Shown here piece by piece: positions 45,101-48,100 of a stretch of 64,000 bases of DNA. Origin of the DNA: Escherichia coli. Its GTDB lineage: Bacteria > Pseudomonadota > Gammaproteobacteria > Enterobacterales > Enterobacteriaceae. Within the stretch, counting starts at the first letter, position 1; each line of letters begins with the position of its first letter. The DNA lies in NCBI RefSeq assembly GCF_017348835.2, contig NZ_CP071375.1; one strand, written 5' to 3'. The position numbers were made by a program.

Positions 45101-48100
45101 CCTGTCGGCTGCCGTTCTGGCGCTGATTGGTGCAGGGGCGTCTGCGCCTGAAATCCTCGACCAGTTTCTGGATGAAAAGGATGGTAACCACACCACAGCA
45201 TACCGTGATGGTACGGGTATCTGGACCATCTGCCGCGGTGCCATCCTGGTGGATGGTAAACCTGTCGTCCCGGGCATGAAGTTGTCGAAGGAAAAATGCG
45301 ACCAGGTTAACGCCATTGAGCGTGATAAGGCGCTGGCATGGGTGGAGAAAAACATCAAAGTGCCGCTGACCGAACCCCAGAAAGCGGGGATCGCGTCATT
45401 CTGTCCGTACAACATTGGTCCCGGTAAGTGTTTCCCGTCGACGTTTTACAGACGAATTAATGCAGGTGATCGCAGGGGAGCATGTGAGGCGATTCGCTGG
45501 TGGATTAAGGACGGTGGCAGAGACTGCCGTATTCGCTCAAACAACTGCTACGGTCAGGTCTCACGGCGTGACCAGGAGAGCGCGCTGGCGTGCTGGGGAA
45601 TTGACAGATAAGAAGAATATTTTGCTGAAAAATGAGGTTTGCTTACATGGACGGATAACACGAAATCCTGCAAATTGGCAAAATGTAAGTGAATAAAGTT
45701 AAAACAGTTGTTTAACACTCAGGCACCGTAATGATGCCTTTGTCATTTCTGCGCATCTCACGCGCATCTCACAACACAGAACCTTTCAGGATGACCCTTG
45801 AGGATACCGGTTTGGCTGTGCCTTTCTGTGGGCTGGATTCCTGTGAGACAAGGTTCATCACTAAAAGGAAATAACCGATGAATATGATGGCCGTGCCGTT
45901 TTATGTAGTTAACCATAATGGCGAACCATACGTTCCCATGAAACCTGTCGTTGCGGGGATGGGGCTGGCCTGGCAATCACAGTTGGCTAAGTTAAGACAG
46001 CGTTTTGCGTCAACTATAACGGAAATCGTTATGGTTGCTGAGGATGGGAAACAACGCAATATGGTGTCCATGCCACTTCGAAAACTTGCCGGCTGGCTAC
46101 AAACCATTAATCCCAACAAAGTAAAACCCGAAATCCGCGATAAGGTCATCCGGTATCAGGAAGAGTGCGACGATGTTCTTTACGAGTACTGGACGAAGGG
46201 TTTTGTCGTTAATCCCCGTAAAATGAGCGTGATGGAAGAACTCAACCAGGCTTGTGCTGACATGAAACGGGATAAAAACATTGCCAGTGTGTTTGCTACC
46301 GGGCTGAATGAGTGGAAACAGGTTAAAGCCGCGCATGTATCAAAAATCCGTACGCTGGTAAATGAAGCGAATATGCTGATTGATTTTGTCCTGGCTGATA
46401 CAGGCAAAGGGAAAATAACAAAGGCGGATTGATGGGGTGGCTAATGATATCAGATAAACTCATAACGCTGGTGAAGAGCCTCTGTGTACTTGTCGGCATT
46501 TCATTTTTAGTCATGCTGGTTGCCATTTTCTTTTCCACCGCCTGGCGAGTCCTGACGTTATCGGGACTGGTGGGGTGAAAGAGAGATGAACCGTGTTCTG
46601 TGTGTGGTGATTATTGTCCTGGCGGTTGGCTGTGGTGCGCTGTGGCTGGCAACAAACCATTACCGTGACAACGCGCTCACCTACAAAGCGCAGCGCGATA
46701 AAAAAGCCAGAGAGCTGGAACAGGCGAATGCCACCATTACTGACATGCAGGTGCGCCAGCGTGATGTTGCTGCGCTCGATGCAAAATACTCGAGGGAGTT
46801 AGCCGATGCGAGAGCTGAAAATGAAACTCTGCGTGCTGATGTTGCCGCTGGTCGTAAGCGCCTGCGGATCAACGCCACCTGCTCCGGTACCGTGCGTGAA
46901 GCCACCGGCACCTCCGGCGTGGATAATGCAACCGGCCCCCGACTGGCAGACACCGCTGAACGGGATTATTTCATCCTCAGAGAACGGTTGATGACAATGC
47001 AGAAGCAGCTGGAAGGGGTACAGGACTATATCCGCACTCAGTGCCTGAACTAAGTTTTGCTGATGCGCCGTATCGTCGCCGTATTCCTGCATTAACAGAG
47101 ACCGCAGCCCGACAGGGAGACTCCTCTGCGAGAGTGTGCGGGGATAATCAAAAACGATACACACCGGGGTTTACCGCGTAAACGGAGCGCGGCGTTCTCC
47201 CCTCATGGTCGCCCGTCCGGTGCGATGGTGGAAGAAACTGGAATCTGTTCAATAAAAAAACTGCCGTGTTGGAGTCACAGCAGTAATGTACTGATTGGGT
47301 AGAAGATTATTATTGTTATGCTTTATTTTTATTCTATATGGCTGATTATTTCAATTCGGAATTAATACAGCTAATGTCTGTGATTTTTTATAAATTCAGC
47401 AATATAAAGAAATAGTTATATGAACAGCCATCGCAGAGCATACTGTGTATCATTCTTTTTTATAGTCAACTGACGGGCATATTTTATGTCTGCTGCCAGC
47501 TCCCGGCGGCAAGATTCAATGACCCACGCAGAAAAATTTTCTGAACCTTTCTGGTCAAGAGCGATGTTAATTTGTTCAATCATCTGGTTTGGAAATCGGA
47601 TGTTGCGGGTTGTTGTTCTGCGGGTCCGGTTTTTCGGTGACATTTTCTTTCCTCTGGTGACAAGCTATATGGCGAGGATTTTACATGGCCGTGCTTCGTA
47701 CGTTACCGGGCAGAATCAAAACTCTGAACACCCGGCGGGTGAATGTCCTGAAGGGTGAACAGCGTCGGGTCAGTGGTAGTGCCCGGGTTTCCCTCAAGCG
47801 TCGTATCTGGCTGAGGGATGCCGGACAGTGCTGTCTCTGTGGGCGTGTGGTTGACCTTTGTGACAGTGAACTTGAGCACCGCATTGCACTTCAGTTCGGT
47901 GGTGGTAATGAGGAGACGAATCTCTGGACGCTCTGTACCGAATGCCATCGACAAAAGTCTGCTCGTGAAGCGGCGAGTGGTATGCCAGACCCGACGCTGC
48001 CGGAGGTGTCCGGAGGTCATGGCAGGGCAGACGATATCATCGGACTGTGACCCGCCCCGGGGGGGGGATCATCCGGCGAAAAAAACGATCGCCCCGGACA

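Follow-up and report, generated by a model that had tools for sequence, protein, structure and literature searches.

A lambdoid prophage adjoining potC on an Escherichia coli chromosome almost certainly encodes both subunits of a lambda-type two-component spanin in the embedded arrangement, in which the gene for the outer-membrane lipoprotein Rz1 lies wholly within the gene for the inner-membrane protein Rz and is read in a different frame. The region has the gene structure of such a pair, its two products belong to the corresponding protein families and carry targeting signals and conserved cysteines, and both reading frames are conserved among relatives. No evidence contradicting a lambda-type embedded spanin was found in this analysis. 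Positions given here are those of the window, the whole 64,000-nucleotide stretch of contig NZ_CP071375.1 (assembly GCF_017348835.2) that was analysed.

The window is a chromosomal segment comprising mfd-lolCDE-nagK-cobB-potDC, and the prophage next to potC begins near 25.9 kb. Rz and Rz1 lie downstream of the holin and endolysin genes, all on the + strand. The holin gene (44472..44678, +) encodes a protein of 68 aa that matches PHROG 9876 and PHROG 20 (‘holin’) and is named ‘class II holin family protein’ by PGAP in a colinear genome. It is followed by the endolysin gene, R (45078..45611, +), the product of which is a lysozyme of 177 aa whose hydrophobic N-terminus is rich in Gly and Ala, identified by matches to PF00959 (E = 1.4e-23) and PHROG 7. 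The cassette is split between the R stop at 45611 and the Rz start at 46586 by an ant-like gene (45878-46432; PF10547, PHROG 524) and a small ORF (46432-46578; PHROG 4906, function unknown) that encodes a hydrophobic product of 48/49 aa with a single transmembrane segment and ends 7 nt before Rz. Identical Stx-phage DNA (AP012536) holds the same insert, with the small ORF between the ant-like gene and Rz. That the lysis cassette has in this ORF an unrecognised accessory component or regulator, and not a passenger, seems to us improbable.

A consensus scan over 44300-47800 returned two promoters, against 4.3 ± 2.4 expected, and seven terminators, against 3.2 ± 1.6 expected. In the stretch from R to Rz the same scan detected no terminator-like site on the + or the - strand, and on the + strand no promoter-like site, so nothing in this interval suggests a separate transcription unit for Rz.

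Both Rz and Rz1 might be intact in sequence and nevertheless be silent relics of a defective prophage, of no service to the present host or phage. In strain 2013C-4974 the integrase and other genes of the colinear prophage are frameshifted, and the prophage in the window lacks stx, with a TerB-type moron in that slot. Against decay, the integrase ORF in the window is intact (372 aa), the reading frames of Rz and Rz1 are both uninterrupted, and the two genes match those of complete Stx2a-converting phage genomes with 100% identity. On this balance we consider silent relics unlikely. The question of decay bears on activity in this strain and not on the identity of the genes.

Rz (46586..47053, +) is an ATG-initiated ORF encoding 155 aa, which we assign as the i-spanin, the inner-membrane subunit, from its family matches and its identity to lambda Rz. 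The protein matches Pfam PF03245 (Phage_lysis) with E = 3.2e-50 and 170 bits, relative to a cut-off of 25.4, over profile positions 1-125 of 126, and it matches PHROG 13 (‘Rz-like spanin’) with E = 1.5e-75. Residues 4-22 (46595..46651, +) give the top Kyte-Doolittle 19-residue mean, 2.84, and form the single strongly hydrophobic segment of a protein that is otherwise 33% charged. This segment is helical in an AlphaFold2 (AF2) model computed from a nine-sequence alignment (mean pLDDT 71), and we infer from it a single N-terminal transmembrane domain (TMD) with type II (N-in/C-out) topology. In the model one helix spans residues 2-87, running from the TMD into the first periplasmic helix; it is followed by a non-helical stretch at residues 88-121, within which pLDDT falls below 50 at residues 96-120, and by a second helix at residues 122-154. 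The modelled layout is that described for lambda Rz, TMD-CC1-linker-CC2 (PMC5295617), with the two coiled coils here represented by predicted helices. Two cysteines, Cys99 (codon 46880..46882, +) and Cys153 (codon 47042..47044, +), are invariant in nine homologues and align with lambda Rz Cys99 and Cys152, respectively.

The same protein has been described in another way. GenBank records of identical DNA call it, for instance, ‘putative endopeptidase Rz’ or ‘phage endopeptidase’, which would make Rz an enzyme that cleaves peptidoglycan or Lpp links instead of a spanin that fuses membranes. Rz has no match to a peptidase family in Pfam or NCBIfam, however, and no globular catalytic fold appears in its AF2 model, which comprises only a transmembrane helix followed by a long helix and, beyond a disordered linker, another helix. 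The lambda literature, moreover, assigns the protein a spanin role in membrane fusion, with Rz and Rz1 acting as one complex (PMC5295617, PMC6139136). An enzymatic role for Rz is therefore very improbable, and ‘endopeptidase’ is merely a legacy product name. The NCBIfam scan itself, which covered Rz, Rz1 and the holin, matched none of the three to any family and is uninformative.

The preliminary description had reported a lipobox-bearing, Pro-rich ORF contained within Rz in another frame, and had read it as the classic embedded spanin arrangement. Both points are borne out. Rz1 (46806..46991, +) encodes 61 aa and lies wholly inside Rz at a start offset of 220 nt (3 × 73 + 1), which places it in the +1 frame. 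Its product, assigned as the o-spanin, the outer-membrane lipoprotein precursor, matches Pfam PF06085 (Rz1) with E = 1.7e-21 and 76.1 bits, relative to a cut-off of 27.9, and PHROG 3198 (‘Rz-like spanin’) with E = 1.7e-31; with the PF03245 match of Rz, both genes are by sequence members of the lambda Rz and Rz1 families, and they have the embedded +1 architecture. Rz1 spans 0.47 to 0.87 of the length (L) of Rz. In about 70% of embedded spanins the o-spanin starts at 0.4-0.5 L, and the range given for its end is 0.9-1 L (PMC6139136), so that the start found here is inside the published range and the end is slightly below it.

The lipoprotein signal of Rz1 was called by a PROSITE-PS51257-style rule. 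Codons 1-19 encode the predicted signal peptide and, with the next codon, complete the lipobox VVSA-Cys20 (46806..46865, +), in which the Cys20 codon occupies 46863-46865 and the cysteine, the predicted site of acylation, is invariant in nine homologues. The n-region, MRELKMK, is positively charged (K/R), and the hydrophobic core is uncharged. The residue at +2 after Cys20 is Gly and not Asp; Rz1 thus lacks the Asp inner-membrane retention signal, and sorting to the outer membrane is predicted from this residue. The mature protein would have 42 aa, of which 11 (26%) are Pro. A further cysteine, Cys30 (codon 46893..46895, +), aligns with lambda Rz1 Cys29, the residue of the intermolecular disulfide, and is kept in eight of nine aligned sequences, the exception being P22.

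The ORF had been placed at 46821-46991. It is the same ORF, but its start requires correction, as 46821 is the second in-frame ATG (46821..46823, +; codon 6), whereas the ATG at 46806 is both the homologous and the annotated start. The N-terminus read from 46806, MRELKMKLC, aligns with that of lambda Rz1, MLKLKMMLC. A Shine-Dalgarno-like GAGGGAG (46792..46798, +; GAAGGAG in lambda) stands 7 nt upstream of this ATG, while the GAGAG that stands 6 nt upstream of the ATG at 46821 is a weaker Shine-Dalgarno sequence. A published synthetic lambda Rz1 construct, in addition, retains AAGGAGTTAGCTG-ATG as the native Rz1 start region. Judged from these sequence features, the gene start is taken as 46806, a correction of 15 nt. 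M1 and M6 are both kept among the lambda-type relatives, and both ATGs are kept in the alignment with lambda DNA. Both conserved starts may be used, the ATG at 46821 serving as an alternative, which would yield two signal-peptide isoforms; the mature lipoprotein is identical from either start.

An ORF nested in another gene can be open by chance, and for this locus the expectation was calculated from 20,000 synonymous recodings of Rz weighted by the codon usage of the window. An alternative-frame ORF of at least 61 aa occurred in 56% of the recodings, because the amino-acid content of Rz seldom yields out-of-frame stops. The length of Rz1 is accordingly not significant in its own right. A lipoprotein-like ORF, on the other hand, arose in only 1% of the recodings. 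Given that ORF length does not exceed chance, the case for Rz1 rests on homology and conservation.

Conservation was surveyed in 11 other loci, comprising the identical Stx2a_1447, other Stx phages, lambda, TL-2011c, ST64B, GER2, P13353, P22, phiES15 and HK620. Each of the 11 has, embedded in the +1 frame, an ORF with a lipobox-type cysteine motif. A strict lipobox rule confined to 35 residues flags the motif in nine of them; in phiES15 (TALTGC) and GER2 (LLGVSAC) the motif is seen in the translation, past the 35-residue stretch that the rule scans. Among nine aligned Rz proteins, identity to the Rz described here descends to 44%. Silent substitutions in Rz were rarer inside the Rz1 overlap than outside it in all 15 pairwise comparisons (in one pair, 0/63 inside and 16/83 outside, p = 7e-5), although the reduction reaches p < 0.05 in only three of the 15 pairs, the pairs are not independent of one another, and mosaic recombination among lambdoid phages confounds the comparison. 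The suppression of silent change in the overlap is treated as supporting evidence only.

These results leave next to no probability to the view that the internal ORF is an untranslated chance opening in a gene where, given the codon content, stops in the other frames are rare. That view draws on the 56% of recodings with an ORF at least as long, on another, meaningless ORF of 62 aa that lies just upstream in the same +1 frame (46614-46802) with no PHROG match, and on two antisense ORFs over Rz that are likewise open; it is effectively refuted by the Pfam Rz1 match (E = 1.7e-21), the 70% identity to the genetically proven Rz1 of lambda (PMC5295617), the rarity of a lipoprotein-like signal among the recodings (1%), the retention of the ORF and its lipobox-type cysteine motif in every relative, even where Rz identity is as low as 44%, and the Shine-Dalgarno sequence 7 nt upstream of its start. 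The lipoprotein signal, homology and conservation of Rz1 are all beyond chance, and homology and conservation are decisive.

The other overlapping ORFs were rejected as genes. The upstream +1-frame ORF at 46614-46802 matches no family, and several relatives do not conserve it. The two antisense ORFs over Rz (46681-46953 and 46799-47164, both - strand) match PHROGs 35444 and 17757, each of unknown function, but as third and fourth overlapping genes they fail in lambda, TL-2011c, P22 and HK620, where their starts and stops shift or vanish. We regard them as composition-driven open frames, and the PHROG families that they match as seeded by mis-called ORFs.

Comparison with lambda (NC_001416) gives 69% identity for Rz and 70% for Rz1, both over the full length, with the frame relation kept. 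The two systems share the same two Pfam families, the +1 embedding, the relative position of the inner gene and the position of the lipobox at Cys20. The cysteines through which lambda forms homotypic intermolecular disulfides, Rz C99 and C152 and Rz1 C29 (PMC5295617), align with Rz C99 and C153 and Rz1 C30 here. Each protein is slightly longer than its lambda counterpart, Rz having 155 aa in place of 153 and Rz1 61 aa in place of 60. In Rz1's proline-rich region, KPPAPPAW aligns with lambda KPPPPPAW, so that the lambda penta-proline (residues 32-36) is changed from PPPPP to PPAPP with Ala at position 34, a position reported in lambda to be insensitive to alanine replacement (PMC5295617). The salt bridge between lambda Rz E150 and Rz1 R59 corresponds here to a polar/polar pair, Rz T151 and Rz1 N60, and polar/polar pairs at this contact are part of the covariance observed among lambdoid phages (PMC5295617). 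The gene neighbourhood differs more. Unlike lambda Rz, the Rz gene here does not overlap the end of R and instead follows the 974-bp insert made up of the ant-like gene and the 48/49-aa ORF, and where lambda has S and the R transglycosylase, the partners here are a class II holin and a lysozyme whose N-terminus is hydrophobic.

Gene 15/Rz1 of P22 and Rz of HK620 resemble this pair in the embedded +1 architecture, the lipobox and the N-terminal half of Rz. They differ in the diverged C-terminal half of Rz and in an overlap region of a different sequence type; identities are 52% (P22) and 45% (HK620) for Rz and 47% and 41% for Rz1, respectively. The gene arrangement of some other spanins departs from the embedded Rz/Rz1 plan altogether, with lysB/lysC overlapped in P2, pseT.3/pseT.2 separated in T4 and the unimolecular gp11 in T1. 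The outer-membrane disruption proposed for these spanins, and their topology of an inner-membrane anchor and an outer-membrane lipoprotein, are the same (PMC6139136).

Expression, localisation, complex formation and membrane fusion of Rz and Rz1 are inferred by analogy with lambda, and suggest the following model. Rz1 would be translated from the +1 frame inside Rz. Rz would be a type II inner-membrane protein, in which an N-terminal transmembrane helix is followed by a long periplasmic helix that a flexible linker joins to a helix at the C-terminus. As in lambda, Rz1 would receive its lipid, undergo cleavage by signal peptidase II and pass to the outer membrane (PMC5295617, PMC6139136). Each subunit may form a disulfide-linked homodimer, as its lambda counterpart does, and the C-termini of Rz and Rz1 would bind across the periplasm (PMC5295617, PMC6139136). 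After removal of the peptidoglycan by the holin and endolysin, the Rz-Rz1 complex would, as proposed for lambda, collapse in conformation, fuse the inner membrane with the outer and thereby destroy the outer membrane, the last step of lysis. In lambda, the loss of either Rz or Rz1 produces a defect in outer-membrane disruption and lysis in the presence of divalent cations (PMC5295617).

Rz and Rz1 in this prophage are an ordinary lambda-type pair, already known and already annotated, with nothing new about them. Both genes are annotated in the Stx2-converting phages Stx2a_1447 and WGPS2. At the equivalent positions the Stx2a_1447 record (AP012536) names ‘putative endopeptidase Rz’ and ‘lipoprotein Rz1 protein precursor’, and it starts Rz1 at the equivalent of 46806. 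These phages share the neighbours found here (the ant-like gene, the small ORF, HNH and terminase) and show no difference in Rz/Rz1 themselves, whereas the prophage in the window differs from them in lacking stx and in the mosaic of its early region. The embedded Rz1 is a textbook example of overlapping genes, and spanins perform the last step of lysis in Gram-negative hosts, but the pair matters little here beyond its correct annotation. On colinear RefSeq chromosomes PGAP annotates Rz only, as ‘lysis protein’, and omits Rz1; automatic pipelines still overlook this gene, and many GenBank Stx-phage records name Rz ‘endopeptidase’. Flagging the embedded lipoprotein ORF therefore helps curation and not discovery. 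The omission has precedent on a larger scale, since Kongari et al. found that 196 o-spanins had been left unannotated in 677 phage genomes (PMC6139136).

The sequence itself is widespread. The DNA from 46400 to 47200 is 100% identical to Stx2a_1447 (AP012536), Stx2a_WGPS2 (NC_049941) and Stx2_EH2246 (LC567837), and it matches many Stx1a phages and BP-4795 at 99.4-99.8% identity. Of 5426 complete E. coli genomes, 4594 contain matches of at least 80% identity to the Rz gene, at a median of two places per genome.

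At the Rz and Rz1 residues that correspond to the lambda E150-R59 salt bridge, the spanin pair carries T151 in Rz (codon 47036-47038) and N60 in Rz1 (codon 46983-46985). Covariance has been reported at these contact positions among lambdoid spanins (PMC5295617), and the double change from charged to polar residues matches that pattern.

In two RefSeq chromosomes colinear with the window, PGAP records only Rz, as "lysis protein", at the counterparts of 46586-47053 (L013 20001-20468 and L014 32086-32553), with no feature for the embedded Rz1 at either locus, and several GenBank records of Stx phages lack Rz1 or name Rz "endopeptidase". 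Two minus-strand ORFs that cross Rz, 46681-46953 and 46799-47164, match PHROG 35444 (E 8e-58) and PHROG 17757 (E 3e-45), both "unknown function". Neither their starts nor their stops are kept in the four relatives compared (lambda, TL-2011c, P22 and HK620), and these two families probably originated as mis-called antisense ORFs.

The lysis cassette is split within 45612-46585, where two ORFs follow the endolysin gene and precede Rz: an ant-like gene (45878-46432; PF10547 P22_AR_N, PHROG 524) and a single-TMD ORF of 48/49 aa (46432-46578; PHROG 4906, "unknown function"), whose end lies 7 nt upstream of the Rz ATG. Both are likewise placed in the Stx phages with identical DNA. The partner lysis genes (44472-45611) encode a class II holin of 68 aa and a lysozyme with a weakly hydrophobic, Gly/Ala-rich N-terminus (MNAKIRYGLSAAVLALIGAGASAP), which together presumably resemble the pinholin/SAR-endolysin pair of phage 21; a DUF1327/YdfR-family gene (44680-45027) separates the two.

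Downstream of the antiterminator gene lie two tRNA genes, one with a CAT anticodon (40752-40827), called Met by ARAGORN but Ile by PGAP in a colinear genome, and one for Arg-TCT (40928-41004), followed by a TerB-family ORF (41174-41605; PHROG 632, "tellurite resistance"). In the Stx2 prophage of strain PV15-279 the toxin genes sit at the slot that this ORF occupies here; the prophage in the window (region examined here 40752-41605) lacks stx. The prophage, which adjoins potC in the window, has an intact integrase ORF of 372 aa (25971-27089, minus strand), whereas in the 99.5% identical prophage of E. coli 2013C-4974 (NZ_CP027587) the integrase is annotated as frameshifted.
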